The notes: generated by a model from the sequence alone, not told the origin. Counted from the stretch's first letter, positions 44,422 through 64,000 are shown. The stretch is 64,000 bases of DNA from Shigella phage vB_SflM_004 (MK295205), one strand, 5' to 3'. Program-made: numbers and translations.

Positions 44422-44678
44422 GTAAGCCTCTTTTAAGTAACTATTAAGTTTTAATCTTTTATCTTAACGTATTCTATACGTTATACTTTAAAGCTTTTTA
44501 AAAGCTATTAAATAATCTTTTAAGAGTTTTAAAGTATCTGTATAGTTAAACTGTTAAGTAACCTTTTAAGTAAAAACCCACTTCGCAAAGATTAACACCT
44601 TGTCAAGTACATTGTCAACTTGCTTTTTATAATTTTTTGCAGTAATGTATGAGGTTAATGATTTTAGAGGGAGTAAAA

Positions 44679-47378
44679 ATGGAAAACGTAGATTTTAAAA
44701 ACTTACATTTAGTTGGTGATACAGAAACTGATGGTTTACTCCTTGAGTTCACTAAAGTGCACGTAATGGCTTTCGCAGACTATAAATCTGACGATGAAGA
44801 GCCACCTGTATGGGTCTTTACAGATGAGCCTATCCTCGGTCACAAATACACTAAGTACATCAAAGGTGGTTTACGTGAAGGTATTGAGTTTGCGTTAAAG
44901 GCAAAACGACTTTGCATCCACAATGGTCTAGGGTATGACTGGTGGGTTTTCAATCACATTGCACCTGATTTGTGGAACTTTGATAATCCAAAGTGTAAGC
45001 CGTGGAGTAACTTCTTTCAGGATTCTCTTATCCAGTCTCGTGTTCAGTGGATGGATAGACCAACTCCAAAAGGTTATAAAGGTGCTCATGGCTTGGCAGC
45101 ATGGGGTGCTCGTGTTGGTGTCCGTAAACCAGAGATTGAGCATTGGGGTGTGTGGAATGCAGAAATCTTCACTCGTGTTGTAGAAGATATCCGTATTAAC
45201 GCCAAAACTAAACGTGCACTGGATAATGAATATCTGAAGCTAAAGAAGTGTGGTATAGACACTTATGAAACCTATATGCGAGCTAAAGAAACATCTTTCT
45301 GGATGAGTCAACAAGCTATCAATGGTTGGAAAGCTGATAAAGAGCTTATGGAGTTCCATGTAAAGGAACTTGACAAGTTGACCAATGAGCTTGCTTCAGA
45401 AGTTGAACCACATCTTCCTCCAACTATTAAGACTAAAGGTAAAGTTACTGGAGAAGAGTTTGCAAAAGCTTGGAATGAGTATGTTGAAACATTCGGTCAT
45501 GCAGATGGACTGAAGAGAATTACCAAGTACCCTAAGACGAAGTACCGTCAGCAGGTACGTAACGGTGAGATGCAGACATATGAAATCAAGCCATTTGGTA
45601 AACCAACTACAAAGATTTTTAACATTGAAAAGAGAAATTGCTATACACCAACCAACTCTGTAACTGGTGAAGAGTACAAGGAAGGTTTTGTAGCAATGAA
45701 GGATGCTCGTGCAATTTGCAATGAGTTGAATGCAAAGATTGGTAAGAAATGCAAAGACTGGAAGCCAGTAAAAACAGTTAAAACTGTGAAGTACTATAAT
45801 AGTCATGTTGTTAATCACTTTGAACTGGAGTCAAGTCGCTACACAGGATTGATTGATGCACCATATACACCAATTGAGTTTGAAGTTTCTCGTATGACTC
45901 AGGTAGCAGTTGTTAAAGACTACTTAAAATCAGTTGGTTGGATTCCAGATGACTGGAACTACAAGAAAGACTCAGATGGTCGCCCTGTAAAAGTTTGCCG
46001 TTTCAAAGACAACAAAAAGATGATTACAAAACATCCTAAGTGGCAGGAGATGGTTGAACGGTGTGGCTTGAGTTATGTTGAACATGAAGGTGTCCAGTAC
46101 ATTGAACATAACTGGTCTGTGAAGAAGTACACAGATTTGCTTGAGCCTTGCTTAATCCGTACTTCACCAAAACTTACTGAATCATCTTATGATACGATTG
46201 AAGGTGAGCTTGGACAGAAGATTGCTAAATACTATACTTTGATGCACCGACGCAGAACTATTGAGAACTCAAAGGATGATGAGAAAGGTTGGCTAAACCA
46301 GATTCGTCCAGATGGTCGCCTTAGTGCTGGTGCAATGGTGTTTGGTACTTCAACTGGACGTATGACACAATACGGTATTGTAAACGTACCGTCTGGTGCT
46401 GCTGTCTATGGGGAACCAATGAGGGCAGTGTGGATTTGTGAAGAAGGTACTAACGTTGTCTCTGTAGACATGAACTCAGCCCAGCTAGTTCTCCTTTGTA
46501 ACTTTATGGGTGACAAAGACTTCACCAAAGCGGTAACGCAAGGTAAAGAAGAGATTGAGTTTATTCGTCAAGAAGATGGACGCTATTACTGCAAACACTT
46601 TGATGAGTACCTCAATCCAGATATTGATAAGTACCTTCGCTATGACTCTGAGAATGACCTGTACGTTGTCTATTCAGGGACTGATGCACACACACTGAAC
46701 AGTATTTACTTTAGCTTGAATGATGAGCAGGATATCTTGACTTGTCGAGCTACTCAGGATGAGAACCTTCTCCATGAGATTAGCAAGGGTCGTAAGAAAG
46801 CTAAGAATGGTATCTATGCACTGCTGTTCGGTGCAGGTGATGAGAAGTTTGCTAAGACAATTAAAGCTGCAACTACTCAGGAAGGTGCACTGACTAAACA
46901 GACTTACTTTATTCGTTTGCCTAAAATTAAGAAGCTGCTGGATGACTTGGAAGCTGACTACAAAGCAACTAAAAAGGCACTTGAAGAGGTATTTGGTAAG
47001 ACTGCTGCAATATCTAAAGGGGGTTTTGTAAAGGTTGCTGGAGCTTGGTTGTGGTGTAAATCTCCACATAAGTTGTTGAATTATTTGCTCATGGGTTCAG
47101 AGGCTCAGATTCAAAATGAGGCAATTAACCTTGCTTGTAGAAGAGCATGTGAAGAAGGGTTGACAAAATTAAATGGACGAAAACCAGCAATTGGTGCTAG
47201 GCTTTTGCTGGCATACCACGATGAAAACAGTTGGGAATGCCCAGAAAGTATGACTCAAGAAGTTAAAGCCATAACTGACTGGATGTATGGTCAGGCATCT
47301 AAGAATTTAGGTTTGAAGAGTGAGACGCTTGTAACTGGCACAGGTAAGGTTGGTAAGAGCTGGTTGGAAGTACATTGA
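44679..47378 (+). CDS. DNA polymerase, family A, with 3-prime-5-prime exonuclease domain
   Basis: ORF 44649-47378; best start ATG 44679 after GAGGGAG RBS; Exo I motif VGDTETDG; motif C YHDE; canonical PolA C-terminus ...GKSWLEVH. Confidence 0.9.
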   Translation: MENVDFKNLHLVGDTETDGLLLEFTKVHVMAFADYKSDDEEPPVWVFTDEPILGHKYTKYIKGGLREGIEFALKAKRLCIHNGLGYDWWVFNHIAPDLWNFDNPKCKPWSNFFQDSLIQSRVQWMDRPTPKGYKGAHGLAAWGARVGVRKPEIEHWGVWNAEIFTRVVEDIRINAKTKRALDNEYLKLKKCGIDTYETYMRAKETSFWMSQQAINGWKADKELMEFHVKELDKLTNELASEVEPHLPPTIKTKGKVTGEEFAKAWNEYVETFGHADGLKRITKYPKTKYRQQVRNGEMQTYEIKPFGKPTTKIFNIEKRNCYTPTNSVTGEEYKEGFVAMKDARAICNELNAKIGKKCKDWKPVKTVKTVKYYNSHVVNHFELESSRYTGLIDAPYTPIEFEVSRMTQVAVVKDYLKSVGWIPDDWNYKKDSDGRPVKVCRFKDNKKMITKHPKWQEMVERCGLSYVEHEGVQYIEHNWSVKKYTDLLEPCLIRTSPKLTESSYDTIEGELGQKIAKYYTLMHRRRTIENSKDDEKGWLNQIRPDGRLSAGAMVFGTSTGRMTQYGIVNVPSGAAVYGEPMRAVWICEEGTNVVSVDMNSAQLVLLCNFMGDKDFTKAVTQGKEEIEFIRQEDGRYYCKHFDEYLNPDIDKYLRYDSENDLYVVYSGTDAHTLNSIYFSLNDEQDILTCRATQDENLLHEISKGRKKAKNGIYALLFGAGDEKFAKTIKAATTQEGALTKQTYFIRLPKIKKLLDDLEADYKATKKALEEVFGKTAAISKGGFVKVAGAWLWCKSPHKLLNYLLMGSEAQIQNEAINLACRRACEEGLTKLNGRKPAIGARLLLAYHDENSWECPESMTQEVKAITDWMYGQASKNLGLKSETLVTGTGKVGKSWLEVH

Positions 47379-47634
47379 TGGTGTTGAAATGATGCTCATG
47401 GAAGAGTACCTTATACTATATATTGTATAGGAGACTTGTATGACTATTTCAGAAATTGAAGTTCAACTGCAATGTGCTGGATATTCTCAAAGTGAGATTG
47501 AGGCTATGTGCATCATCATTTGCAGTAGCCATAAGCACCTCAAGCTTTCCAGAAATTCGTCTTAAGGTTGATATTTTTATTGCTGGAGGTAAGATTATCA
47601 AGGATAAGACAGGCTACCTTAAAGGTGAACGTCT

Positions 47635-47844
47635 ATGAGCCATCGTGGAAGAACTCATCTTGCCATGATGCAAGGTGCTTCAAAAGAGACTATCAAGAAT
47701 CGGAAGAAAACTCTTTTTGACAGAATGAATAGACTCATTGATAATGCAAGCCTACCTAACTCTGAAAAGGTTTTCTTGAAAGGGAATCTGAAGAGTATTG
47801 CACAGGAACTTATTGACATTGAATTTTGGAGACACCAAAAATGA
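47635..47844 (+). CDS. hypothetical small protein (cassette ORF1)
   Basis: 69 aa (MSHRGRTHLAMMQGASKETIKNRKK...). Confidence 0.4.
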   Translation: MSHRGRTHLAMMQGASKETIKNRKKTLFDRMNRLIDNASLPNSEKVFLKGNLKSIAQELIDIEFWRHQK

Positions 47845-48092
47845 CATACGCAGACGTTATTCAGCAACTTCACGACAACTGCTATACCCCAGAGTTGATT
47901 CAGGAGATGTGTATTGTAGTGATGCCTAGCAAGTTCGTAAAAGCCTTTAGAAATGAAAATTTCACATCTGATGAGTTCTTTGAAATAAAAGACGGAAAGG
48001 TTGTATGTGAAATGGGTTACCCAATGGCTGCATGGTACAAGGGGGAACCTTGGCAGAAAACTGGATGGAGTATCTTTAATGAAACTTTATAG
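47826..48092 (+). CDS. hypothetical small protein (cassette ORF2)
   Basis: 88 aa (MTYADVIQQL...[11 protein letters not shown]...). Confidence 0.4.
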   Translation: METPKMTYADVIQQLHDNCYTPELIQEMCIVVMPSKFVKAFRNENFTSDEFFEIKDGKVVCEMGYPMAAWYKGEPWQKTGWSIFNETL

Positions 48093-48888
48093 CATTTGGG
48101 GAAGAGTTGGTGAAGGTTATGACTGGACTCTTCTTAAAACAAATGTTAAAAGTAACGAGATAGCTTACTACAAAATCTATTACCATAAAACTTTTAGAGA
48201 GGTAGAGTATCGTGAGCAATAAAGAGCAAGAAGCTTTAGCAATCTTCAAGAGCGAAGACAAATCAATAGCTATTGGACTACGACCCCGAAACAGGGGTCA
48301 GACTATCAATGGTACTTAGATTTGTGTAAAATGAAATCTGTAGAGCCAGTTGATGAAACCCGATTCAAAGAACTGTATAATATCTGCCAAGAGGGTTATG
48401 AAGAACATTACGAAGGTTCTTTGAATCCTGTAAATTCAAAAGCTTCAGACTTATTTTACTTGGAAGTTTAGAGAGAGTAGTCCTACTGGTTGGATGTAAC
48501 CCTTCTTATGAGAATAAGGATGCTTCTTACAGACTTCCTCCGGTATCACGAGGCAATAAGAACTTCAACTCTCGTGCCATTAGCAGGGATGTTATTGTAG
48601 TTCGCTGCCCAAATTCTCAAGACTACTACTTCTTACAAGTATGGAAAGAATAGTCAGTCACATACTACTGTTTTTGATTGAGGATATTAATATGCAGGTT
48701 CTTGTAAATTTTATCTATAAGTATGAAAACATCTTCAGTAACATGACTGTAGCACAACGTAATCCTGTTATACCACGAGAAGGAAAAAAGGCAGGAAATT
48801 ATAGTTGGAACTACAAAGTTGAAGAAGTCAAACACAAATTCAAAGATGGTTATGACCACCAAGTTGTAAATGTGTATTTAAAAGGTAA

Positions 48889-49284
48889 GTGGCAATGAGT
48901 GAAAAAAGGTTATTCAAAGAGTCCTACAGTAATCTGAAGATGGGTTATCAAGGCTACTCAATACCTTGGTATGAAGATAAGAAAAAACAGTATTCAAACC
49001 CTTTTATATATCAACCTGTAAAACTCTCTGTACTGGAGTTTTGGCATGAAACTGGAGCTACGCCATACCAATTTGACAACATGGAATATGCGCGTATTTG
49101 TAAAAGTCTTGGTGCAAGACAAGTTGATAATATCATTGAACATTTGAAGGATTTGTATAAAGATTTTGCTGGATACTTATACGAGAAACAGTTTGGGGAG
49201 TGCTTAAAATACCCAGATGGGCACTCGTTTTTCACAAAAGGTTGTCTTAATGGTAACATAAAAATTGCATACAAAGGCTTGTGA
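48889..49284 (+). CDS. hypothetical protein
   Basis: 131-aa ORF. Confidence 0.4.
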   Translation: MAMSEKRLFKESYSNLKMGYQGYSIPWYEDKKKQYSNPFIYQPVKLSVLEFWHETGATPYQFDNMEYARICKSLGARQVDNIIEHLKDLYKDFAGYLYEKQFGECLKYPDGHSFFTKGCLNGNIKIAYKGL

Positions 49285-49379
49285 GGCACGTAATATGATT
49301 TTTATACTAGATTGAGACTACCATACCCAGATAGCTCCTTTTCCTTATCTAGCAATGCAATGACGCACTCTGGGAATAT

Positions 49380-50001
49380 TGTTTCTGTTGAAAAATGATA
49401 AACACAGATGGTCACAAGTCTGTTCAGTTATTGCTTGATGGTAAAGGCTACCAAGCTAACCGTCTAGCAATACTATATGTGGATGGATACCTGCCTGATA
49501 AAACCTTAGAGCGTAATGCTGAACAGCAAGCTCCAGGTTGACCATAAGAATGGAGATGGTTGGGACAATAGGTCCAAGATAAGTCATAAGAAATATTTGA
49601 AGTTCCCTGCTGACGCTCAACTTAAATTTAAGGGTTTCGTTGCAGGATTTCAAGAGATGCTGACTCAGAAAGCTTTTACAGCATATTCTCGTGAGAACAC
49701 GGTATACAACATTCCTATAGAGTTGATTCCTGATGTTCTTCTTATGCTGAAACTGCACAAAGATGTTGAGGATTTCGATGGTGAGATTTATGCTCATGGT
49801 TGGGACTTAGAAGATATTGTTTCGATGATTAAGAATGCTGACAATCCAGACCGTCACCTTCTTAAATTCTACTGGTATGATATCTGTGACAAGACTAAAT
49901 CTTGGCCTGAGCGTCGTGAAGTTTCACCATTGTACAGCTTCACAAAACTCTTGCAATCGGTCAAGAAAGAAAACTCCTTCAACGAGTGTTGTCACCGTTA
50001 A
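49380..50001 (+). pseudogene. HNH endonuclease remnant (frame-disrupted)
   Basis: Frame a reads ...GKGYQANRLAILYVDGYLPDK...APG then stop; frame b continues VDHKNGDGWDNR (HNH core); a matching N-terminal fragment LLDYDPETGV lies ~1.1 kb upstream at ~48270. Confidence 0.5.
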
Positions 50002-50369
50002 TACTCCGGGATTAAGCAAGATGCACGGGGGGGGGGTTAAATTAAAGTAACTGGTGTCAAAACTGATAAACGTGGTCATGGTAAGTTCGTTGTAGAGACT
50101 CTTCCTAACGTCCCTATCTGGGTTGCCAAAAGGTGTACAGAAGATAAGTAAAAGCCCTGAAGAGTTTATCGGGAAACCTTTAACTGTTCAGTTCCAGAAG
50201 ATGAGTTTCGAGCAATGATACGTTTATTATCATTGGCTTACTTCACAAGTAAACTCTTAAGTATAACATACAAAGCCAAGGTAAAAACTATCATCTTGGT
50301 ATGTTTGACACACCGTAACTGACTTAGAAAATTTGGTGAGTATACTGAGCATCATAAACCAACGGGTAC

Positions 50370-50715
50370 TCACCAACATCACTTAAGAGTCTTTCTAAGG
50401 GGTTTTTAAGTGATGCTCGGTAAGGTTCGGTTCGGTTGGGTGTGGTATGGTGGTGTAAGGTGGTGTAAGGTGGTGTCAGGTGTAGTATGGTGCGGTGAGG
50501 TTCGGTATGGGTAGTTAGTCTCAGCTACATTAAAATGAGACTTACCTTTTTAAAAGGTCTTTAATAGGGTCTTTTAATAAGGTGATGTGAGGTGGGGTCT
50601 GGTCTGGTTTGGTAAGGCGCGGTCTGGTTTGGTAAGGTAAGGCTCGGTAGGATGTATGGTAGTAGCCACGTTAAAAATCTACAGGCATCTAAGAAATCTT
50701 CTGTTGAGGGTTCTT
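50370..50715. repeat. GGT-rich composite repeat element, copy 1 (two GGT-rich tracts around a hairpin/T-run core)
   Basis: Tracts of the form ggttcggttcggttgggtgtggtatggtggtgtaagg...; core gggtagttagtctcagctacattaaaatgagac + ttttaaaaggtctttaa; repeated at 51805-52245. Confidence 0.7.
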
Positions 50716-50740
50716 TACAAACAACTTAACAATTAACTAA

Positions 50741-51340
<600 letters not shown>

Positions 51341-51342
51341 TT

Positions 51343-51783
51343 ATGAATACAAAAGCATTAGCAGCAAAATTTAGTTACGGTGATACTGTATCACACTCTG
51401 AGATGGACACCTTCTTAGGTATTGTGAAGCCGACTTATCAAGGTGACATTGTTAAGTACGAAGATGAAATGAAAGCTTACGCACTTACACGTCTAAACCG
51501 ACTTGAGAAGTTTATTGAGAAGCTTCTTAAAGAAGAGAAGATTTATCTGGTCACTTCAATGGGTGTTGGTTATCGTGTGGTGGAACCTAAGCATCAAGCA
51601 ACTATTGCAAAACGTAAAATGTCTGGTAAGATTGGTCGTGCTTTAAAACAAGCCACTCAAGCGATTGAGAATGTGAACACTATGGTACTTAGCCATCAAG
51701 AACGTTCACGACTGATTGAACAGCAAAACCACTTAGCTGCTATGAAAGCTAACATTAATAAGCAACGTAGAAAACCTTTCTAA
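51343..51783 (+). CDS. hypothetical protein
   Basis: 146-aa ORF; start overlaps the upstream stop. Confidence 0.45.
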   Translation: MNTKALAAKFSYGDTVSHSEMDTFLGIVKPTYQGDIVKYEDEMKAYALTRLNRLEKFIEKLLKEEKIYLVTSMGVGYRVVEPKHQATIAKRKMSGKIGRALKQATQAIENVNTMVLSHQERSRLIEQQNHLAAMKANINKQRRKPF

Positions 51784-51794
51784 GTTGACTAGGT

Positions 51795-51820
51795 AGCCTC
51801 TTCGGAGGCTCCTTTTTAAA
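51795..51820 (+). terminator. rho-independent terminator
   Basis: AGCCTCttcgGAGGCT + CCTTTTT after ORF 51343-51783. Confidence 0.5.
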
Positions 51821-52245
51821 AGGTCTTTAAACAGGGTCTTTTAATGAGGTAGTGTTCGGTCTGGTTAGGTCTGGTCTAGTTCGGTTTGGCAAGGTGGGGT
51901 TAGGTATGGGTAGTTAATCGGAGCTACATAAAAATTCGATTGCACCACTTAAGAGTCTTTAAATTATATTCGAAAGAGTATCTCATAGGGTTTTTAAGTG
52001 TTGTTTGGTATGGTACGGTTCAGTGGTGTATGGTTTGGTTCGGTGGTGTAAGGTGTGGTCCGGTAAGGTATGGGTAGTTAGTCTCAGCTACATTAAAATG
52101 AGACTTATCTTTTTAAAAGGTCTTTAAACAGGGTCTTTTAATGAGGCTGTGCTCGGTACGATTCGGTTGGGTCAGGTAAGGTTGGCGAGGTCAGGTCGGG
52201 TGCGGAAGGATGGCAGTAGCCTTATAAAAAATCTGCCAAATAAGC
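51805..52245. repeat. GGT-rich composite repeat elements, one half copy plus one full copy
   Basis: Same hairpin/T-run core and GGT-rich tracts as 50370-50715, in direct orientation. Confidence 0.7.
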
Positions 52246-52329
52246 TATAAAATCTGTTGACAAGTCAGGTGTTATAGCTTATTTTTATACTCAATGTAAT
52301 ACAAAATTTAATATAACTTTGAGGTCATT

Positions 52330-52713
52330 ATGAAAAAGATTTTATTAGCTTCTGCAATGGTTATGGCAATGAATTTACCAGTCAAGGCTATGAAGATGCC
52401 TGAAGCAAACTTTAACGGTGTTGCTTTAGAATCTTGTAAGATTGTACAGAAAATTGCTTCAAATGCTGGAGAGTTGACGAAACCATTATCTGCTCCAACT
52501 GTTCAAGAAATGACTGATAAGATGGTTGACTACAACTACCATTTTATGGGAGATTACTATGACAGATTGGCAGATGAGATGGTTACCCAGAATGTTGATG
52601 TTCTTGACAGCAAAGGTATCGAAGCTGTAGAAGATGTGAAAGATAATTTTATGCGTGAGTCTTTCAAAGGTGTCCAATATTTTATTGAAAATCGTAACTG
52701 CATAGGTTTATAA
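52330..52713 (+). CDS. hypothetical secreted protein
   Basis: 127 aa; N-terminal signal peptide MKKILLASAMVMAMNLPVKA. Confidence 0.45.
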   Translation: MKKILLASAMVMAMNLPVKAMKMPEANFNGVALESCKIVQKIASNAGELTKPLSAPTVQEMTDKMVDYNYHFMGDYYDRLADEMVTQNVDVLDSKGIEAVEDVKDNFMRESFKGVQYFIENRNCIGL

Positions 52714-52913
52714 TCATGAAGAAGAACATCCCAGAAGCGGTTATGGTAAGATAATTGACGATACAGACGGCTTTACAGTTTACAGAGTTTGGGCTAATGA
52801 TTTTTCAACCGTTGTAGAGTCTTTAGATAACTACATCAACGGGACTCGTGAAAACGTCAGAGCAACTAATCTTGATTCGTTAATAGACACTTCTCGAAAG
52901 CGGAGAAAGAAAG

Positions 52914-53213
52914 ATGAATGAAGTCTTTGACCCTTATGCACCTCAAGATTCTTGGGAGGCTGATAGTGAGGCTGAAATGGAGAGTTATATCTATCCAATG
53001 GATATTGAAGAGATGAAGGACTTTGTAGCCTTCCGATTCTCTAAAGAGGTTGAGAATCAGAAACTTTCTCAGGCTCAGGCAGCAATTATTTGTGAAATCT
53101 CACAGAGTCGTGTTTCAAATATCATTAACGACCCTCAAAAGATTTCTTTAGAGTACATGCTTAATGCTTGTGCAAAACTTGGTGTAAACTTTAACTTAAG
53201 GCTGGCAGATTAA
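52914..53213 (+). CDS. putative helix-turn-helix DNA-binding protein
   Basis: 99 aa; LSQAQAAIICEISQSRVSNIIN resembles an XRE-type HTH. Confidence 0.4.
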   Translation: MNEVFDPYAPQDSWEADSEAEMESYIYPMDIEEMKDFVAFRFSKEVENQKLSQAQAAIICEISQSRVSNIINDPQKISLEYMLNACAKLGVNFNLRLAD

Positions 53214-53554
53214 TATGAAACGTGAAAATGCAATCTTTAACGATAACTTTGCAATTGGCTTCTATGGTAAACCAACTCCGGCAGAGAAGCTTTATGGTAA
53301 TGCAATTCTGGAGACCTTGAAAGAGGTTTAAGAGCTGGTATGAGGTACATTGATGCAAACCGTGTAAGAGGTTATATGGCAATTGGCTCTGCAATCTCTA
53401 ACATTAAGCTGGAGACTACCAGTGCTAAGAAGGTACGAGACCACTTCATCAAAGAGTTGTCAGAGATTGTGGATGGTGTTGATATCAAGGCTGTCTGGTT
53501 AGATGTTGAAGGTCACAACTACACCACTTTTGTATTTAAAAATGAGGATATCAA

Positions 53555-53947
53555 ATGTCTCTTCCCTTAAAACTTGATTTATACTTTGGTTACAGTGTAT
53601 TACAGGGTAGCATACTTTCACTACCAAAGTCAGATTACCGTTGTGATTTAGGTTCTGTGAAACGTGCATCACACATGAACAGCAACATTTTAGGCTTGCA
53701 GACACTTCACAGGTGGCTTGAGGAAGATGGGCATTTGAATGAGTATCTTCACCAACTCGAACTAGCCAAAGAAGAAGGGCATATGGGTTGGGATTTACTA
53801 CCCCATCTGTACAAACCTGCAAGCCCTATGGAGATACGCTATAACGAACAAGCGATTGATAGTTATAACAAATATAATATAACTATTGGCTTAAAATCTT
53901 GGTTAGATTATGACAAATCATTATACAGACCATTGGAAAGCGTGTAG
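53555..53947 (+). CDS. hypothetical protein
   Basis: 130-aa ORF. Confidence 0.35.
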   Translation: MSLPLKLDLYFGYSVLQGSILSLPKSDYRCDLGSVKRASHMNSNILGLQTLHRWLEEDGHLNEYLHQLELAKEEGHMGWDLLPHLYKPASPMEIRYNEQAIDSYNKYNITIGLKSWLDYDKSLYRPLESV

Positions 53948-54069
53948 CAAAAGGTATTGCTTATGATGAAAAGGTTGACTGGAATACACAAAAGTGTATA
54001 AAATTCTTCAAGTACGATAATGACAAAGATACTTTTGTAGAGGTTTAACATGAAAATTGGAATTACCCT

Positions 54070-54381
54070 TTGCCAGCCCGAAACAGGGGTCTTAACATTA
54101 TGAAAGCTACAAATCATACTGAGAAGACATTCTTGATTGATACAAACTATGATGCAGGAACTATTGAGTTCATTGATGAAGACACTGCTGATTCCTTGTG
54201 TGTTCTTCCTGCTCACTTATTTACTCCAGAGCTACGTGAGAGTCGTTCTATTGAAGTTAATCTTGAGCCAAGTATTGAACTGTACTCAGATACACAGTAT
54301 CCAAGAAGTTTTAAAGGATTGGCAGACCTCCACATAGTAGTAGGATGGTTATTGGAAGCCAAGCCGGAGGTGGTCATGTAG
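54070..54381 (+). CDS. hypothetical protein
   Basis: 103-aa ORF. Confidence 0.35.
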   Translation: MPARNRGLNIMKATNHTEKTFLIDTNYDAGTIEFIDEDTADSLCVLPAHLFTPELRESRSIEVNLEPSIELYSDTQYPRSFKGLADLHIVVGWLLEAKPEVVM

Positions 54382-54813
54382 TAACTGCTGAGTGTGAACA
54401 AGGCACTATCAAGCTGACAGGTGATTTTGGTTCTATGAGTTTCTTAGACTTTGTTCCAAAACACTTTGAAGACTTCCTGTCAAGTGAAGTTGATGACCTT
54501 GATTTCATACTAAAATTTGAACGCACTTTTAAGGTAAACAAAAAATGAAAATCTTAAGCGGAGTATCACAGTGTTACATGAATGATGGTGAGCCAGTTAA
54601 ATGCTGCCATTGTGGAGGTGAGAACTTCCAAGGTGAAGTTTCAGAGATTGTCTCTGGCAATATCAATTAAGCGCACAAGGTCTGGTGTGTATATGCACAC
54701 ATTTTATCTTTTTGGGCTTATGGAAGTTATGAACCACAACCCCACCTTATTTACCATCCAAACAGGATTGTGAAGCGTGTTCTGAACTGGTTCATTATCA
54801 AAGGATTTACAAA

Positions 54814-55253
54814 ATGATTAAGTTAATTTTTGCAAGTGGTATTAACGGGGAGTTTGGCACAGCTACTGGAATGCCTTGGCCTCGTAATAAACAGATTTTA
54901 GGAAGCAGACTGTTAACCAGTTAGTCTTGATGGGTAGCGAAACTTGGAAGACTCTTGGGAGCAAGCCTTTGCCAAACCGTGAGAACATTGTCTTGACAAA
55001 CTCTCTTGACTTTTATGGTCTGGATTTTAAAGATGACTCTCATTGTAAAGCAAGAGTTAAGCCTGAAGCTTTTGGGGCTTTCCTGAAGTATATTGATAGC
55101 TCTATTGATGAAGATGTTTTAGTAATCGGTGGAGCCAATATCTTAATCTCAGCTTTGCCGTATGCTGACGTAGTTTTCCACAGCGTCATTCAGGAAGTTA
55201 CAGGACAGGTAATCACCGAATTGCTTGGTGGGTTTCTTCCAGTACTTGTATGA
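54814..55253 (+). CDS. frd: dihydrofolate reductase, with an apparent -1 frameshift near 54880-54900
   Basis: N-terminal MIKLIFASGINGEFGTATGMPWP in one frame, then DFRKQTVNQLVLMGSETWKTLGSKPLPNRENIVLT...VIGGANILISALPYAD in another; AAGGA RBS. Confidence 0.7.
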
Positions 55254-56237
55254 CACAGATTTATTTGCTAAAGTACAGTCCAAACCTCTGGATGACAGGT
55301 AAGTGGCCTGACAAACACATTGACCACAAAGAAGAGGGCTTTTCTAATATGTCACAAGCAGATGTAAGCTACAAAGCTATTTTAAACCATGTTTTATCAG
55401 TTGGTGAGTTGCGTAAAACCAGAACTGGCTCAGTGATTTCTACCTTTGCTCCACCTGAGTTCCGTTTTGATATGCGTAGTGGATTTCCATTAATCACCTC
55501 AAAACAAACGTTTATGCGTCAAGTCCTCGGTGAAGCATTATGGTTTATGAACGGTGAAAACCAACTAGGCCATTTGCGTTACAGAACTTGGGGGGAGAAT
55601 GACGGAGAGCGTTGGACTATCTGGACAGATGATTTTAAACGTTGGTTGAAAACAACCTATGCTACAGAGAATGATTGGCTGGAGGACGCTGGAGGAAGAA
55701 TCTATGGAGTCCAATGGAGAGCCTACGAAGGTCATGGTGGAGTTGTTGGAGATGGTTTGAATAACGCTTGGGACAATCTAAGAGAGGCCACAAAAGAACA
55801 GAACATGTCTAATAACGCATGGAATGCAGCAGATATATCAAGTAACTCTATGGCATTAGCACCTTGCCATGTACTTTTTCAGATTTACATCTCGAACACT
55901 AATGAGGTAGATTTGAAATGGTATCAGCGCTCTTGTGATACGTTCTTAGGATTACCATTTAACATTGCTTCCTATGCCTTTATCTTGGAAGTGTTGTGTA
56001 AACTGACGGGGTATACACCGCGATATCTGATTGGTACTTATGGTGATACTCAAATCTATCAGAACCATATGTCGCAGGTTTTTCAGCTTCTTGGTAATGG
56101 AGACAACCTAGAACATCAATCAAGATTTGAAGTCTCTTGAAGACTTGAGACATATGACAGCAGATGACTTCCTAGGTGGGTTGAAAGGGTATAAACATGC
56201 TGGTAAGATTGAAGCACCTTTATCAGTAGGTAAGTAA
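55250..56237 (+). CDS. td: thymidylate synthase, with an apparent +1 frameshift near 56110
   Basis: MALAPCHVLFQIY (catalytic Cys), RSCDTFLGLPFNIASYAF, YGVQWRAY; the C-terminal ...DDFLGGLKGYKHAGKIEAPLSV continues in another frame after the ORF stop at 56140; true start may be the internal ATG at ~55349. Confidence 0.75.
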
Positions 56238-56334
56238 AAACTTAAAAGGTACAAGTAGAAGCAAGTCTGGTAAGTTGTTCTGTAATTGCTTGCAAAGCTG
56301 ATATGGATAGCCCAGATTAACCATAACGGCAAGA

Positions 56335-56622
56335 CTATACATATAGGAACATACACAACTTTGCGTTCTCACCCTTAACATTCTCTAGCTGAACTTTCTG
56401 GTTCTCCATCCCTAATTGTAGGAGCTTCATATCAGATTGTAAATCACGAATAGCTGAATAGTTACCTTTTGAGTAACTATCCAACTGTTGTAACTTTGTG
56501 TTGATAGAAACTTCTTGCTTTCCGTCAGAGACCTGCATCGTAGTGTACATACCAATTACACTGAAAATACCTACAACGATTGCACCAATATTGTTCTTGA
56601 AAGCATCTTCTAACCACTTCAT
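56335..56622 (-). CDS. hypothetical membrane protein
   Basis: 95 aa; TM helix IGAIVVGIFSVIGMYTT then coiled coil; a 59-aa TM mini-ORF lies upstream at ~56635-56812. Confidence 0.4.
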   Translation of the reverse strand: MKWLEDAFKNNIGAIVVGIFSVIGMYTTMQVSDGKQEVSINTKLQQLDSYSKGNYSAIRDLQSDMKLLQLGMENQKVQLENVKGENAKLCMFLYV

Positions 56623-56887
56623 TATTTCTCACCTTTAAAAGCCTTTTCCAAGGTATCAACAAATTCATCATCAATAGGTGTATCTGTTTTACTCGCAAGG
56701 TATCTTGCAAGCTTAAAGAACACTTTTTCAATCATGTATTCACTGAGAAGAGGAAGAAGAAGCCCATAAAGTTTCATGAGGATTGCTAGAATGGTCGGCA
56801 TTTAATCACCTTACTTCTTGAGCCAAGATGGTGAGAATACCTATTAAGAAATATTAACACCATCTTGTCAGTTAGTCAACAAGGTAA

Positions 56888-57844
56888 TTAAGCAGTTTTT
56901 ACCCAAGCCATTAATTTAATAAAGGCGTTAGTAACATCAAATGCTGCACCAGAACCTGTACCACCAGTTGTACCACTTAATGTGTGGGCATGAGCACCAA
57001 TTGTCACAGTGTGTGTATGGTCACCTACCCAACTTGTTCTCCCTGTCCAAGTTCTTGATGCGTAGAAGTTAACTGGTGTACCATAAGTGAACTGTGAACC
57101 AGTATAACCTCTAGAGGCTTGCGATGACATCTTACTACCACCTGCACCAGTCCCGTTCCATCTTACTGTGAAGCTGCTATTTGCAACATTATGGGCGTGA
57201 CCACCCGCACCAGAGATTTCCATGTTACCTCTGTCATGGTCGTGAGCACCTTGAGCGTCTGTGTACTTAGTACCATAATCAAAGGTAGTGGTTGTTCCAG
57301 AGAAGCTGTGAGTATGACTTGGAAGATGACCTACAGCAATACTCTTAGAGTCTGAGCCACCTACAGAACCAACATCCTCACCAGTTGAAGAGGCAATTCT
57401 AATAGTTCTGAACTGACCATTTGATAGGTAAGCCCAAGTAGTTCCTGCAAATGCTGTATTAGGGTTTACATTCGATGCAAAGAACGTTACCATACCAACT
57501 GGATAGATTTTGTTAAGGTCTGTTGAGTTAGAAATAGCTGTTGCAATCTTCTGGTCAGTCTCTGCTTTAGTGTAAGCTCCAACATCTCCAGCAGAAGGTT
57601 TCTGTGCTTCCGTGAAAGTGTTGTAATCAATTACCACATAACCATCAACCGCATTAGCTGGCTTAGTAGATGACACAGTAGGAGCAGAATGGACAGTAAT
57701 AACTGCACCATTGTTGTAGTTAAATTTAAACTGTGCAGTCGGTGTAGATGTACAAACTCCACGCATCATAGTTATCTCCACCAACTGAAACAGTACATAC
57801 ATCAACACCAACACCACTATCTGTACTTCTGTAAAGAACAGCAT
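56888..57844 (-). CDS. tail fibre protein (His-rich distal/receptor-binding type); N-terminal limit uncertain
   Basis: HxH repeats (GHLPSHTHS, GDHTHTVTIGAHAHT) and C-terminus ...AFIKLMAWVKTA paralogous to the end of ORF 59486-60481. Confidence 0.5.
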   Translation of the reverse strand: MLFFTEVQIVVLVLMYVLFQLVEITMMRGVCTSTPTAQFKFNYNNGAVITVHSAPTVSSTKPANAVDGYVVIDYNTFTEAQKPSAGDVGAYTKAETDQKIATAISNSTDLNKIYPVGMVTFFASNVNPNTAFAGTTWAYLSNGQFRTIRIASSTGEDVGSVGGSDSKSIAVGHLPSHTHSFSGTTTTFDYGTKYTDAQGAHDHDRGNMEISGAGGHAHNVANSSFTVRWNGTGAGGSKMSSQASRGYTGSQFTYGTPVNFYASRTWTGRTSWVGDHTHTVTIGAHAHTLSGTTGGTGSGAAFDVTNAFIKLMAWVKTA

Positions 57845-57899
57845 TTAGACCCGATGGGTTTGCATTTCCACTTCTCAATACTAGTTCATTTTTGCAAAA

Positions 57900-59440
57900 C
57901 TAAGTTGAACCAACGTTGAAACCTGTACCACCATAGAGTCTTAAAGTTGCTGTTGATGGTGTTTGTGGCATTGTTACAGTAGCAATTTTCACCCAACCAC
58001 TGTCATAAGTTGTTGCATTCATAGCAGTAGCTCTTGAGAATACAGTATTAGCAACACTTTGTGTGTAGTACCTTGCATCAAAGTTAGATACATCTGTAGG
58101 GATAACTTGACCTTCAACTCTTAAAGGTTTATTGAGATAAGCTACATCCCTTAACTCTAGATATGTATTCACTGACAAGGTGCTCAGGGAAGAGTACCTT
58201 AGTCTGCTACCTTCACCGTTACCAACATACCAACGTCGCATCAGTACTATCTTTTGCAATAACCCCGTTGCTATTCATTGGCTGGGTAGCTGTCCCACTT
58301 TGCAATGTGAAAGCAGCATCTGTAGTAACAATAGTTTGAGCACCTGTGAAAGTGTTTGCAGAGTTATTTCTTGCAAGACTACTTAATAAAGAGCTTACAA
58401 TATCTTATATAGGAGGACTTATGAGCCACCGTGGAAGAACCCATGCAGCGATGATGAAAGGTGCTTCAAAGGAGACACCAGATGAGTAGAGTCTCATAGT
58501 TGCACCTGTCATCTGGTTAAACAAGTTAACATCCTGCTTAGTCCCATCAGGTTGACCAAGATACCAAGACTCTGAACCAGAACCTGCGTAGGCTTGAACA
58601 AATACTGCACCGTTTGCTGTAGCTGGTTTCAATCTAAGCAAAGACCCATCAGAAATAATTGTCTGATAGTTTGTGAAGTTGTTTGCACCTGAGAAGGTAT
58701 TATTTTCAGTTAGTCTTGCAAATCTTTGGTCAGCAGCTATCAAAAATCGTAAGCAGAAGTTGTTTGAGAGAATGAACAGGTTAATTGACAATTCATCTCT
58801 TTCAGGTTCTGAGAAGGTTTTTAACTAGGGAACCGGTCTTGTTGTTGTAGAAAATAACATCGTCACTTCCGAATCATTACCTACATACCACCTATTAGCT
58901 CCAGTACTATCCTGGCTACAATAGCGGAGTATGCCTCACTTGCACCAGCAGGGGTCTTCAGTGTCATAGCTTCACCATTTGCTTGAATAACTTGTTGGGA
59001 GGTAAAGATGTTATTTGCAGCTAGTCTTGAGTATCTTGCATCATTTTCCTCATTTGTTCTCATACCTAATTCATTAGGAGATGGTTTATTAAGTGTGTGA
59101 TAAACTGTTGCAGACCTTGAAGCATCTGCAATAGTTAGTCTAAGACCGTTTGAGTTAATTTTAAATCTTGAAAGGTAATCTGAAAAGCATTGCACAAGAA
59201 CTTGTAGAATAAATCTTTTCCACCGTAAGTTAACTTAACAATACCCAGATTACCTGTCATATTCCCGCCAGCTAATTGCAAGAATCTTTCAAGTCTGAAT
59301 GAAGCTAAGAAATTTGCATAGGTCATTTTACGGTCTTCATCACCTAGCATATCAGACCTTTTAATTACTCTCAAATGTAATAGGTCGTCTGAGCGAACTG
59401 TATCAATTGTGTTTAGTTCACTTAGTTTGTATTCAGCCAT
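57900..59440 (-). pseudogene. tail-fibre repeat region broken into at least four ORFs, with embedded cassette fragments
   Basis: ORFs 57900-58259, 58405-58791, 58881-59195 and 59135-59440 carry tail-fibre-like repeats (RL..NN.F.G.N.F...QTI); cassette-derived fragments at ~58394-58476, ~58738-58823 and ~59166-59207; frequent frame changes. Confidence 0.35.
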
Positions 59441-59485
59441 TTATCAATCCTCTTTATAGGGGCTGTGTAGCCCCTTTATAAATTT

Positions 59486-60481
59486 TTAAGCAACTCTCTT
59501 CCACACATAAACAACATAAGATGGTTGTTCAACACTGAAAGCTTGTCCACCACCAGATGCACCAGTTGTACCTGAGTGAGTGTGCTCAGAAGATTGAACT
59601 GTCACAGTACCACTGTGTGTATGTGAACCAATACCGACTGTGTGGCTGTGAGCACCAATACCGACTGTGTGGCTGTGGTCACCGGATGCACCAGATGTAA
59701 CATCTCCAATCGTCACAACGTGAGAGTGGTCACCTGCCCCATAAGTTGGTTGTGACGCATTACCAACACCTGCATCAGCCGTTGCCGTAATAGCATTCAC
59801 ACCACGTCCACCAACGTTCTGTACAAGAGCTTGGTGAGTGTGATTGCCAGAGTTGTTTGTATTCCTTGAACCATAGTCAAAAGTACTGGTATACTTAGTT
59901 CCATAGTCAAAGTCACTTGTAGATTTTGTACCATAATCAAACACACTCGTTGTCTTATTTCCGTGGTCGAAACTTGAAGCTGACGCACTATTACCATGCG
60001 TGTGTCCACCACCAGTTAACAATACAGAGTGTGTGTGACTTGGAATGTTATTTTGAGAAAGTGCTACAGATGCACTACCAAAATTAGTTTCAACTGGTCT
60101 TGTGTCAGAATCATAACCAACTAATGCTCTACCTTTAGAGACAAGTTCCCAAGTACCACCACAAAGTAAATATGTAGATGGGTTTGCAGGGTTAACTGAC
60201 AAATGGATAGTACCAATTGGGTAACTATTCTGGATAGCTCTATAAAGAGCATTCACAGCTTTTGCAGTAGCATACTTATCAGCATCTTCAGAGTAAGAGT
60301 TTGAATAAGTCCAGTATTGAATATTGGAGACATCTACCTGAATCTTGTTAGTATTGTGAGGGTTGTTCTTATCATTGATGTGGTTCTGAATAAGAGTATT
60401 AACTTCATCACTTGATAGAATATTAAGGTTCTGCCTAGCCTCTTCAACACTAACCACGTCTGACAAGTTATTAGCAGCCAT
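59486..60481 (-). CDS. tail fibre protein (His-rich)
   Basis: 331 aa; repeated HTH/HSH motifs (GDHSHVVTIG, GDHSHTVGIGAHSHTVGIGSHTHSG); conserved C-terminus ...YVVYVWKRVA. Confidence 0.6.
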   Translation of the reverse strand: MAANNLSDVVSVEEARQNLNILSSDEVNTLIQNHINDKNNPHNTNKIQVDVSNIQYWTYSNSYSEDADKYATAKAVNALYRAIQNSYPIGTIHLSVNPANPSTYLLCGGTWELVSKGRALVGYDSDTRPVETNFGSASVALSQNNIPSHTHSVLLTGGGHTHGNSASASSFDHGNKTTSVFDYGTKSTSDFDYGTKYTSTFDYGSRNTNNSGNHTHQALVQNVGGRGVNAITATADAGVGNASQPTYGAGDHSHVVTIGDVTSGASGDHSHTVGIGAHSHTVGIGSHTHSGTVTVQSSEHTHSGTTGASGGGQAFSVEQPSYVVYVWKRVA

Positions 60482-60677
60482 TAATTGGAGTGCGTTAACA
60501 ACATTACCAAGTTCTACGTGAACCTTTGTAACGCCGTGTGGGTTATTTCTTAAAGATGCGTGTGGAGCAAGTAATTGCTCAAGTGTGCAACGCTTATCCT
60601 CAAAAAAATGACACTTGTGTCAATAGGTAAAGAGGCTTGAGGCAATGCACTAATTTGAATTTCACCAACTGCCATTA

Positions 60678-62061
60678 TTAGCTCCCTTTATATTCGTATG
60701 TGTAAAGGTTAGTCGTGCTAGTGGGTGCAGTTCCTGTTACTGTGTCAATTAATTCCCAACCATTGGAAACTAAATCAGGTTGCTCCGTAGCAAATGAACG
60801 AACCTCTCCAACCGTACCATTTACTTTGTTAAGCAAATAGTTAATAATATAGTTAAACCACTGGCGACCCATAGGCTCTCCCCTTAATAGGCCAGTGGCT
60901 TGAATTTCTGGAGGTGGTAATACTTTAAGCTGGTTACTCCCTTCTTGTTGTGATTTATCTTTTCTACCTTTGACGATTTGAGCAACTTCTGCCATAATAC
61001 CATAATCGCCACCAGTTACCATTTCTTTACCAGCAATAAAATAGTCACTGCTATTGTTTGTCTTGCTGACTTTCATATAATCTTTACTGGTACTTCCACC
61101 AGTTTTGTCAACTCTAAAGTAACCATCCCTAATACCAGCATCTGCAAAGCTACCAAGCTTGTTAGCCTCCAGAGAACCACCTGTGTTGTTCGTAATAAGA
61201 CCCTTGTTAGTGTCTGTAACAAACCAGTTGTTGTTCTCATCAGTAATTGCCAGACGTTATTCAGCAACTTCTACAGGAGTCCACGCAGTACCATTTAGCG
61301 TAATATCTCTTATGATAACTGCTACACTAATAGTTGCCAGAGTTAATTCAGGAGATGTGTATGCTGTATCTACAACGTTGTTTCGAGTGTTTACACGAAC
61401 AACAATACCACCCGTCATAGGTGTGATATGTTCAAAGATTTGACTAAACGTTGCATTGTAGTGATGCCTAGCAAGTTCGTAAAAGCCTTTAACAGTGACA
61501 CTTTAAGGTCTGCACCAAATGCACGAATACCAGCAGGTTTTGTGTCCCAGATTGCTTGTGCGATGTTAACATTCTTATTGTTGAAAGAAGAAGCCCATAA
61601 AGCTTACTGTGAAGCCCATCATAATTTGTAGTCTCTGTGTCGTTCTCTACACCAGAAGCATCAGATACACCTTGAACCCTCTTGACAGCAGCTACAATAG
61701 CATCTAAAGTACCTACACCAGTAACGGCTAAGGATTCTAGATAACGCTGTCTAAGTTCTGTATCAGTTTCTTCGTTACGACCTGCTGTTAAATCGTATCT
61801 GTTAAATACCCCATCAAGACCATCTACAGTCGTTTCAATCTCAATAAAAACTCCACGGAGAGTTTGCAAAACTCCAGTTTCTTCAGCTACAACGTCACTA
61901 ATTGATACAATCTTTGTAAATGTTAGGAAGGTCGTTGCAGTTACAACCATAGGGTTTGTTCTTGCAATGATATCTCCAGTATCTTTATAGATTCTCAGAA
62001 GAGAACCGTCATTGATGACTTCAGCTTTTGCTGCAATACCACCATTGATAGAGTCTGCCAA
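60678..62061 (-). pseudogene. virion structural (baseplate/tail-fibre-like) coding region, fragmented
   Basis: ORFs 60678-61076 and 61489-62061 separated by frame breaks; cassette fragments at ~61251-61272, ~61336-61362 and ~61451-61512. Confidence 0.3.
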
Positions 62062-62117
62062 GTGTTGTAACAGAGTCGTAATGGTATCTGAGCTTGTAGG
62101 ATGGTAAGAGTACTAAG

Positions 62118-62650
62118 TTGACAAGGTGCCCTTATACAATATCTTATATAGGAGGGCTTATGAGCCACCGTGGAAGAACCCATGCAGCGATGATGAAAGG
62201 TGCTTCAAAGGAGACTATCAAGAATCGTAAGCAGAAGTATTTCAAATGTGGTGTCATCTGTTGTTACTTTATTCTTTTGAGATGTTTGAGAGAATGAACA
62301 GGCTAATTGACAATTCATCTCTTTCAGGTTCTGAGAAGGTTTTCTTGAAAGGTAATCTGAAAAGCATTGCACAAGAACTTATTGACATTGAGTATTGGAG
62401 ACATCAAAAATGACACTTGCAGACGTTATTCAGCTCCAGAGTTAATTCAGGAATGTCCATTGTAGTCATGCCTAGCAAGTTCGTAAAAACCTTTAACAAC
62501 GACGCTTTAAGGTCTACACACATCCTTATCGTGATTGCAAAAGACCGTACTGGAGTACTCAAAGGTGAACGTATTGATATTCTGGAGTCTGGGGAAGTGT
62601 TGGTAAAGGTTTTGACTGGACACTTCTTCGTGATTCCTTAAAAGTTCTGG
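62118..62650 (+). repeat. small-gene cassette, copy 2 (promoter-like leader, ORF1 with a 46-nt insertion, ORF2 variant)
   Basis: ttgacaaggtgcccttatacaatatcttatataggagggcttATG leader; MSHRGRTHAAMMKGASKETIKNRKQK... reading frame; ORF 62417-62641. Confidence 0.6.
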
Positions 62651-62658
62651 TATAAAAA

Positions 62659-62690
62659 CACAAAAGGGGAAGACCTTTTACAGTCTCCCC
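62659..62690 (-). terminator. rho-independent terminator
   Basis: Minus strand GGGGAGACtgtaaaagGTCTTCCCC followed by TTTTGTGTTTTT, after ORF 62740-63144. Confidence 0.45.
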
Positions 62691-62739
62691 CTTATTAGGA
62701 TTTGTCAAACGTTAAACGTAGTGATTGTTGAAGTGTAGT

Positions 62740-63144
62740 CTAACTTCTCACAACCAAAAATCCAAGTTTTAGAGTTCTGGTCACGTCCAAGTTCAATCTG
62801 TGGAAGCTCTTGCAACCAAGCATTATTACCAGAACTGAACCGGATGGGTCATAAATTACGAAGTTAGATGAAATGTCTTCTTCAAGTTCCATGTCATCTT
62901 GTTTAGCTTGAATTGCAGAAAGCATCTGGTTAGATAGAGAAGTCTGCATTAGCTCAATCTCAATCGTACCTGTTTTATCTGCGTTTCTTGTCAGAGCTAC
63001 TTGACCACCTGCACCTACAACTGGCGTAACAAGTGGAGAAGTTCTCTGAAGACGTAAGAATGAGTCTGGTGCAAAACCTTCAATGGCAATGCCATTCCAG
63101 CTACAAACTACATCTTTAGGGGAATATTGCTGATACATAGCCAT
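62740..63144 (-). CDS. putative virion structural protein
   Basis: 134-aa ORF in the structural block; no specific motif. Confidence 0.35.
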   Translation of the reverse strand: MAMYQQYSPKDVVCSWNGIAIEGFAPDSFLRLQRTSPLVTPVVGAGGQVALTRNADKTGTIEIELMQTSLSNQMLSAIQAKQDDMELEEDISSNFVIYDPSGSVLVIMLGCKSFHRLNLDVTRTLKLGFLVVRS

Positions 63145-63159
63145 TCCTATTTACTCCTA

Positions 63160-63468
63160 TTATTCGTAAGCCACTGTGCCTTTCAAGTCCACATCCAAGA
63201 TTGCCCCTGCTAAGATACCGTGGAAGGTAATGTCTTTCAGGATACGAGCTTTCTTATCTGCAAGTGATACTTGTGAGGCTTTAGGAACAGTAACGGTATA
63301 AGTAGACAAAAAGTTTCTGTTAACTGCTCTCTGAAGAGATGTTTCAATGACCTGACGAACACGAGTAATACCTGTATCATCATAAGTAATCTTACCACCC
63401 TTCTGATTAATTAGCAAGTCTCTTAGAGAAGTTTTCAAGTCTGATTCAAGCCAATCGACATCACTCAT
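63160..63468 (-). CDS. putative virion structural protein
   Basis: 102-aa ORF; 3-nt gap to the upstream ORF, so possibly one frame-broken gene. Confidence 0.35.
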   Translation of the reverse strand: MSDVDWLESDLKTSLRDLLINQKGGKITYDDTGITRVRQVIETSLQRAVNRNFLSTYTVTVPKASQVSLADKKARILKDITFHGILAGAILDVDLKGTVAYE

Positions 63469-63471
63469 TAT

Positions 63472-63816
63472 TTAAAAACATACACCACCAGAAGTGATAC
63501 CTCTACGCACTACGAGAGGTAGACTATCGTGAACAATAAGGTTACAGCTACGTGCATCAAGTGCTGACTTCTGAATGCTTGTCAGAGGTCTCTTGTTAGC
63601 TGGCTGCATAGATGCTGCTACACCAGTTAACTGAGCATTACCCCAAGCAATAGAACCTGCATCGTATGGAGCACCATAAGCAATGTAAGCCATTTCTGGG
63701 TAGTCAAAGCTTGCTGTGTGATGCCATAGACATACTGTACGAGTGTACTTACTCTTAGAGAGTTGTGTGAAAGCAATGGTTGCAGAAGCCAGTTCAGTTC
63801 CTTGCAGAGCTTTCAT
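63472..63816 (-). CDS. putative virion structural protein
   Basis: 114-aa ORF in the same block. Confidence 0.35.
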   Translation of the reverse strand: MKALQGTELASATIAFTQLSKSKYTRTVCLWHHTASFDYPEMAYIAYGAPYDAGSIAWGNAQLTGVAASMQPANKRPLTSIQKSALDARSCNLIVHDSLPLVVRRGITSGGVCF

Positions 63817-64000
63817 GTCATTGCTTGCCTTGGAGTAATTTTTCTATCTGGCTGTAATCCCTCATTGCAGTAACGAACTGTGAAGTTCTGTCTTCAGTTG
63901 CAATAAAGTACCAATCAGTTGAGTACGTTTCAATTGCAGCCAGAGCTACAGAAGCACTATCAGCAGTTGTTGCAGAGATTGAAAGAGTCTGTGCAGTTGT

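Follow-up and report, generated by a model that had tools for sequence, protein, structure and literature searches.

Mosaicism through homologous recombination is known from the tail-fibre genes of the Ounavirinae and of other myoviruses, and in natural mosaics of this kind frames are kept, crossovers lie in shared identity, the pattern recurs in more than one isolate and no block length is preferred. Felix O1-like phages can also carry an HNH homing insertion 3′ of the DNA polymerase gene, consisting of one intact gene at one site, while diversity-generating retroelements alter stretches within receptor-binding genes by adenine-specific mutagenesis from a donor-like repeat. Comparable traces are left by two computational processes, namely the chimeric co-assembly or mis-merged consensus of related genomes and the scattering of a non-homologous sequence by a global aligner. 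The subject here is a stretch of 64,000 nt (the window) from Shigella phage vB_SflM_004 (MK295205), a Felix O1-like myovirus (Ounavirinae), in which ~50 ordered plus-strand pieces of one other locus run through the backbone. The threaded locus consists of the HNH endonuclease gene and the small-gene cassette that follows the DNA polymerase in relatives. The affected region is very probably an assembly or finishing artefact in MK295205, and not a DNA molecule that existed in a phage.

The locus shares individual traits with each of these systems. As in natural tail-fibre mosaics, two natural alleles alternate at homologous positions, however here the frames are broken, the switches share ~8 nt of identity, the pattern occurs in a single record and blocks come in multiples of 50 nt. 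As in HNH homing, the series starts with that polymorphic HNH gene, but instead of one intact gene at one site there are 8 to 14 pieces over 2-5 kb of unrelated genes, twice; no intact open reading frame (ORF) of the gene is found, only the 8 and 14 dispersed pieces and a replayed tail. A donor-like repeat and altered stretches within receptor-binding genes recall diversity-generating retroelements, whereas here adenine-specific mutagenesis is missing, the pieces occupy the opposite strand, the frame is destroyed and genes not involved in host binding are hit equally. The resemblance to chimeric co-assembly extends to abutting blocks without homology, tandem alleles (835-4087), lost essential genes, an anomaly confined to a single record and very high coverage assembled with default settings, although the present case is more extreme than ordinary strain-mixing chimeras, with blocks of 25-100 nt, decimal quantisation and an ordered second sequence over 15 kb. 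With the scattering of non-homologous sequence by a global aligner the locus shares order, strand, exact resumption, in-register similarity of 40-70% and length-conserving replacement; alignment by itself, however, leaves a sequence unchanged, and here it must have been turned into a written consensus or merge.

The identity of the sequence and the uniqueness of its anomaly are directly observed. Exact matches to proteins annotated in the 85,887-nt record MK295205 were obtained for 17 of the 20 ORF products tested, and broken ORFs are equal to the annotated proteins AZV01472, AZV01474, AZV01476, AZV01467 and AZV01478. Among ~15 billion proteins, six of the nine mosaic-region products that were found form singleton clusters, including these five. 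Approximately 300 related records are collinear and intact at this locus, and the anomaly is confined to MK295205. A 47-mer from a junction has no match in IMG/VR, the JGI metagenomes or 185,579 species genomes, and three junction or variant patterns have no match in IMG/VR. The vB_SflM_004 stock underwent three rounds of single-plaque purification and CsCl banding, intact contractile tails were seen by transmission electron microscopy, and the genome was sequenced on the Illumina HiSeq platform at 4,115x coverage and assembled with SOAPdenovo 2.04 at default settings (PMC7925395). The published genome is described as free of tRNA genes, with rIIA/rIIB present in two pairs and a 'deletion' of ~10 kb around position 18,000, and a tape measure protein is not mentioned in the description (PMC7925395).

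From its first base to ~47.1 kb, the window has ~95% identity to E. coli Felixounavirus genomes, with ULIM8 among the best, and the large genes before 48 kb are all intact. The genus switches from Felixounavirus (ULIM8) to Mooglevirus (KPS64) type inside the polymerase 3′ end (47.1-47.4 kb); at 47100-47400, identity to ULIM8 drops from 94-100% to ~80% and identity to KPS64 climbs to 95-100%. The polymerase ORF remains open across this switch, so the deposited polymerase may be a hybrid. From 48.3 kb the sequence is collinear with Citrobacter phage Moogle, with blocks of 100% identity of up to 627 nt separated by non-Moogle patches of 10-300 nt. This patchwork extends from ~48.3 kb to the end of the window and is composed of exact copies from five or more GenBank lineages, making the two templates proposed by a preceding sequence-only reading of this DNA too simple a description. 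The supposed tail-fibre repeats that the same reading had described between the fragments proved to be Moogle/Henu12-identical blocks (100% to Moogle) alternating at homologous positions with blocks of 96-100% identity to the Shigella phage KPS64. A greedy parse of 47950-64000 into exact matches, with blocks of at least 16 nt and five GenBank genomes from two genera, places 88% of the bases in exact blocks; it was used in place of a three-state hidden Markov model (HMM) segmentation, which broke down where KPS64 was unaligned. A sixth lineage is represented by a stretch resembling Shigella phages Sf15, 3HA14, ESh20 and SFPB that is absent from Moogle (Table 1). A 92-nt patch in the gp57 homologue (59612-59703) has internal 27-nt repeat units (GACTGTGTGGCTGTG...) and no exact match to any of the five panel genomes, and could represent a further allele of a tail protein.

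KPS64 (gp36) and Henu12 (gp45) carry the HNH gene; it is not found at this site in Moogle, ULIM8 or the window, where the polymerase-cassette junction (47378-47393) has no HNH gene in between. The first cassette copy encodes a gp38 homologue that is 100% identical in protein sequence to Moogle gp38, and the Felixounavirus cassette allele, expected after a Felixounavirus polymerase, is found only as the threaded series. This series opens with KPS64-type HNH pieces that sit among broken small genes and in the gene for DNA ligase, continues with the Henu12-type HNH gene, and passes at 58420-61585 into Felixounavirus-type cassette pieces that are exact to ULIM8 and Pr103Blw. The cassette fragments listed by the sequence-only reading were all recovered on the plus strand and in cassette order, matching the copy at 62.1 kb, with one further piece (60315-60334) that it had missed. 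The extent it gave, 57900-62700, is indeed affected but covers only the last third of the affected region, in which the series runs from 48279 to 63845. Likewise, the near-complete cassette copy it placed at 62118-62650 exists as a dense copy, but one that holds a 47-nt piece of the baseplate-hub gene and, relative to phage Pr103Blw, deletions of 22, 9 and 24 nt, and its gp38-like ORF is out of frame. The hub piece is the sole exact-identity remnant of 6.5 kb missing from the window.

The order and contiguity of the pieces are directly shown. The scattered fragments tile 62135-62515 without overlap, the only extras being a 44-nt interruption and two gaps of 5-6 nt, and the fragments coincide exactly with the non-Moogle patches. 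Repeatedly, the next piece starts at the source base after the one at which the previous piece ended, as at Henu12 738|739, 819|820 and 865|866, ULIM8 23782|23783, and Pr103Blw 3341|3342, 3372|3373 and 3398|3399. The pass from 53329 to 61585 comprises 23 pieces on one strand in strictly ascending order, for which random placement gives a probability of ~1e-29 (1/23! x 2^-23), and chance is therefore excluded.

Table 1. Features of the vB_SflM_004 window and annotated products of its broken genes (positions counted from the first base of the window)
Feature	Position	Strand	Source, identity or remark
DNA polymerase gene	44649..47378	+	intact, 909 aa
Cassette copy 1, small genes 3′ of polymerase	47393..48271	+	KPS64 type (Mooglevirus), 97%
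Series A: KPS64-type HNH pieces	48279..50314	+	KPS64 locus 16023 to 16429, ordered; pieces 48279-48299, 48455-48474, 49400-49423, 49480-49508, 49534-49571, 49930-49969, 50126-50146, 50277-50314
Sf15/3HA14-type stretch	48890-49402		513 nt, upstream of ligase remnant; 95.7% identity
Series B: Henu12-type HNH gene	53329..58201	+	Henu12 locus 585-1147, 14 ordered contiguous pieces: 53329-56, 53669-82, 54077-96, 54316-69, 54664-701, 55199-229, 55287-332, 55747-814, 56236-75, 56304-59, 56753-71, 57162-81, 57891-908, 58173-201
Tail-fibre gene remnants	56888..59440	-	homologue of Moogle gp56 (843 aa)
Cassette leader and gp38-like start	58388..58487	+	100-nt foreign patch; 58396-58476 = 62135-62215, 99%; 58420-58473 exact to ULIM8
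gp38-like gene middle	58737..58821	+	= 62215-62238 plus 62283-62343, 96-98%; 58745-58821 exact to ULIM8 locus 23507-23583
gp38-like gene end	59166..59203	+	= 62343-62380, 100%; 59177-59203 exact to ULIM8
gp57, gp58, gp59 and gp60 homologues	59486..62114	-	tail/baseplate genes
20-nt piece	60315..60334	+	exact to Pr103Blw locus 2982-3001; = 62387-62405
14-nt piece	60604..60617	+	exact, = 62406-62419
21-nt piece	61251..61271	+	exact to Pr103Blw 3016-3036 and ULIM8; 61251-61265 = 62420-62434, 100%
22-nt piece	61337..61358	+	exact to Pr103Blw 3054-3075; 61337-61353 = 62436-62452, 100%
Two pieces, source-contiguous	61454..61585	+	61461-61515 and 61569-61585 exact to ULIM8 23728-23782 and 23783-23799; 61454-61511 = 62458-62515, 91%
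Series rewind, HNH tail replayed	61585..62129	+	61585-61615, 61848-61873 and 62112-62129 = Henu12 1051-1129, 100%
Dense copy 2, Felixounavirus-type cassette	62135..62631	+	exact ULIM8 and Pr103Blw blocks
Baseplate-hub piece inside copy 2	62239..62285	-	47 nt, exact to Moogle 45037-45083
Series after copy 2	62706..63845	+	Pr103Blw 3285 to 3415, source-contiguous pieces 62706-62724, 63469-63484, 63514-63544, 63759-63784, 63829-63845, inside structural-protein and tail-sheath genes
AZV01472, annotated 'tail fiber protein'			128 aa; singleton cluster
AZV01474, annotated 'tail fiber protein'			331 aa; singleton cluster
AZV01476, annotated 'baseplate assembly protein'			190 aa; singleton cluster
AZV01467, annotated 'thymidylate synthase'			296 aa; singleton cluster

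The lengths of the backbone blocks are quantised. The Moogle-identical blocks of 40 nt or more number 61; the lengths of 11 are exactly divisible by 50, three of these measuring exactly 250 nt, and 18 have a length modulo 50 of 0-2 where 3.7 are expected (P = 1e-8). Over moduli 17 to 60, besides 50 only its divisor 25 is enriched (P = 2.5e-7), with weak spill-over at 48 and 49. The KPS64 blocks follow the same 50-nt pattern (P = 0.001), whereas no length quantisation is found in the control comparison of 23.9-48 kb with ULIM8 (P = 0.17-0.59). The foreign pieces displace roughly their own length of backbone, and for 18 of 28 the ungapped, in-register similarity to the replaced Moogle stretch is significant, at 40-70% compared with ~30% in controls, which is the picture of an order-preserving alignment of unrelated sequences and not of a polymerase jump. 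Microhomology at the junctions is 0-6 nt, with a mean of ~1.4 against ~0.7 expected by chance, and the identical run shared at Moogle/KPS64 switches averages 7.7 nt. These overlaps are below what a k = 23 graph edge needs and appear too short for homologous recombination, which suggests that the pieces were placed by coordinate and not by overlap. Quantised lengths, in-register similarity and junctions without usable homology together show a computational origin.

The losses are equally apparent in the genes. Compared to Moogle, the window lacks first 725 nt, whose place is occupied by the piece at 61461-61515, and then 6,522 nt, for which a 515-nt cassette copy stands in. Seven essential genes between gp61 and the tail chaperone are affected: six (gp61, baseplate spike, gp64, gp65, tape measure, tail chaperone) are found nowhere in the window, and of the seventh, the hub gene, only 8% is left. 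Frame changes were detected by tblastn in 12 genes, the length differences of the patches often not being multiples of 3. The tail-fibre remnant, a composite of Moogle/Henu12-identical blocks, KPS64-identical blocks and foreign patches, is broken up by five or more frame changes, leaving ORFs of 318, 119, 128, 104 and 101 aa. The gp57 tail protein homologue is frameshifted at 60604, where the 14-nt piece displaces 30 nt of the Moogle sequence, gp58 is cut by a 47-nt deletion at 60936, 72% of baseplate gp59 and 40% of wedge gp60 are present, and gp69 and the sheath gene are also frameshifted. Genes on the opposite strand, encoding ligase, gp48-50, DHFR and ThyA, are broken too. The frame breaks that the sequence-only reading reported for the tail genes are therefore real but not confined to them, and since ligase, DHFR, ThyA and others are damaged as well, the damage is not specific to receptor-binding genes. 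We know of no way in which a myovirus without a tape measure and a baseplate hub could be viable, and as the phage is viable and has intact tails, the record cannot be the genome of the isolate. The earlier judgement that an artefact should be considered first, an intact phage being intolerant of so many breaks, is borne out by the quantisation, the alignment signature, the gene loss and the restriction of the pattern to a single record of a viable phage.

The artefact could have arisen if the data held several Ounavirinae, comprising one Felixounavirus (ULIM8/Pr103Blw type) and at least two Mooglevirus types (Moogle/Henu12 and Sf17/KPS64), with the Sf15 type probably a further input. These inputs were presumably co-sequenced or contaminating phages rather than pasted reference sequences, and would have been merged by some program or manual step. 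At the 3′ end of the polymerase gene the record would change its backbone from Felixounavirus to Mooglevirus, and from ~48.3 kb a software step would have set the competing sequences on one axis through an order-preserving alignment and written a block-wise mosaic. Homologous alleles contesting one slot would produce the Moogle/KPS64 alternation, while orphan alleles without a slot (the HNH gene and the Felixounavirus-type cassette) would be stretched over downstream genes, overwriting the backbone at the best-aligning places and leaving ordered pieces that each pick up where the previous one stopped; empty slots would give rise to deletions and frameshifts. The extreme grain of the mosaic points to an added alignment-and-merge step that is absent from the paper.

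Several points weigh against this explanation. SOAPdenovo defaults alone account for neither the 25/50-nt quantisation nor the global-alignment signature, so that an undocumented extra step must be assumed. Triple plaque purification speaks against a mixed lysate, and the extra genomes therefore need cross-contamination or reference sequences as their source. ULIM8, Henu12 and Pr103Blw were deposited later than MK295205 and so were not pasted in, leaving only close relatives in the data as a possibility. That the junctions lack read support is something we infer. Whether window, Moogle or pairwise-alignment coordinates are used, the lattice keeps a constant phase only piecewise.

Specific candidates for the procedure were rejected. 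Strain switching in a de Bruijn graph fails as the sole cause because the identity shared at the switches falls far short of 23 bases. One 50-nt lattice throughout, be it in window, Moogle or Moogle-KPS64 alignment coordinates, fails, as do a fixed reference tiling and a fixed FASTA line length, because the lattice phase is only piecewise constant.

Chimeras between related templates are a known phenomenon in sequencing libraries, and the data clearly represent several related genomes. Recombination mediated by the polymerase chain reaction (PCR) during library amplification of mixed phage DNA, followed by faithful assembly, is nonetheless a very improbable source of the pattern. PCR chimeras cross over in shared identity, whereas the non-homologous junctions here share 0-6 nt and the Moogle/KPS64 switches a mean of ~8 nt, and rare chimeric reads would not dominate a consensus of 4,115x coverage at ~100 consecutive sites. 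It would also be left unexplained why ~50 pieces follow one another contiguously and in strict order over 15 kb, and where the 50-nt quantisation and the in-register similarity come from.

Still harder to credit is a real defective or hybrid phage DNA, formed in a mixed infection by copy-choice or microhomology-mediated template switching and packaged as a scrambled recombinant. Polymerases do not count in fifties, and template switching has no cause to replace stretches of equal length that are 40-70% similar in register, nor would it be expected to read out a second template in strict order, from a single strand and without gaps, over 15 kb and with a rewind. The sources are all natural relatives able to share hosts, tail-fibre genes are naturally mosaic in the group (fibre lengths differ, for example, between KPS64 and Moogle), and the slight excess of 1-3-nt microhomology (mean ~1.4 against ~0.7) fits such a process; yet the tape measure, the spike, the chaperone and most of the hub are gone while the thrice-purified stock has intact tails, and a defective genome would be unable to dominate data of 4,115x coverage. 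There is scarcely any likelihood that serial template switching scrambled genomes in the stock while Felixounavirus and Mooglevirus DNA replicated together, and that the record faithfully reads out one such molecule; if this were true, it would represent a new fine-scale recombination between genera in lytic phages.

Programmed diversification of receptor-binding genes, either retroelement-like or by cassette switching, with the small-gene cassette as donor, is almost certainly not the cause. Tail-fibre genes do make up part of the affected region and the repeated cassette resembles a donor, but the pieces lie on the strand opposite the tail genes, whose frame is broken rather than recoded, and ligase, DHFR, ThyA, baseplate and sheath genes are threaded in the same manner. 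Differences between the copies are few, mixed and not adenine-specific (95-100% identity), nothing similar occurs at the locus in any of ~300 related records, and the length quantisation speaks against such a process. Each large ORF has its counterpart among the annotated genes of collinear relatives, and no reverse transcriptase is among them (no HMM scan was run). An in silico generated or scripted chimera, as from a genome language model rather than a sequencing project, would match the verbatim blocks from several genomes, the looping second 'voice' and the decay after 48 kb, and a preprint reports generated genomes that degrade progressively with distance from the prompt, however this deserves virtually no credence, as the broken ORFs are annotated proteins of an Illumina-derived GenBank record (2021 paper) and three of the best-matching genomes were deposited after it, indicating that the sequences reached the record via real related DNA or reads and not by database copying.

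With an assembly or finishing artefact as the explanation, the ordered fragments are not a real feature and hold no new biology, and MK295205 is apparently a chimera of several genomes, at the least from the polymerase 3′ end on. The broken 'tail fiber', 'baseplate assembly' and 'thymidylate synthase' proteins of the record are publicly annotated, and the tested products form clusters of their own. False genes and false signals of recombination would be passed on to any work that draws on the record, be it taxonomy, the inference of host range from tail fibres, pangenomes or the training of models. The value of the finding is curatorial: MK295205 is to be handled as chimeric and mis-assembled, and such records can be detected by parsing into exact blocks against relatives, followed by a block-length quantisation test and a test of inserts for in-register similarity.

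Other features were noted in the window. No tRNA genes were identified by ARAGORN in positions 1-64000, while Moogle has 21; the same mis-assembly may have removed the tRNA cluster, compare the published ~10 kb 'deletion'. At 835-4087, a block of ~1.4-1.8 kb occurs twice in tandem, the copies being 91-100% identical by segment (835-1013/2672-2851, 1420-1719/2846-3145 and 2471-2658/3898-4087). A 3.6 kb query for this duplicate covers only ~2.0 kb in relatives, corresponding to a single copy (173 records, at least 80% of the query), and the tandem duplicate is probably two alleles of co-assembled phages side by side, which makes it a second indication of co-assembly in the record. Non-coding tandem repeats are present at 4131-4298 (84 nt x 2, 92%) and 4737-5002 (125 nt x 2, 98%, 141-nt spacing). 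Degenerate GGT-rich repeat arrays with a period of ~10-11 nt (e.g. GGTAAGGTTCGGTTCGGTTGGGTGTGGTATGGT) lie at 50389-50640 and 51812-52240, preceded by a conserved CTTTTTAAAAGGTCTTTAA motif; they are intergenic, following the ligase gene and the gp44 homologue. Moogle carries the same arrays (30249-30497 and 31630-32025), and they are thus natural.

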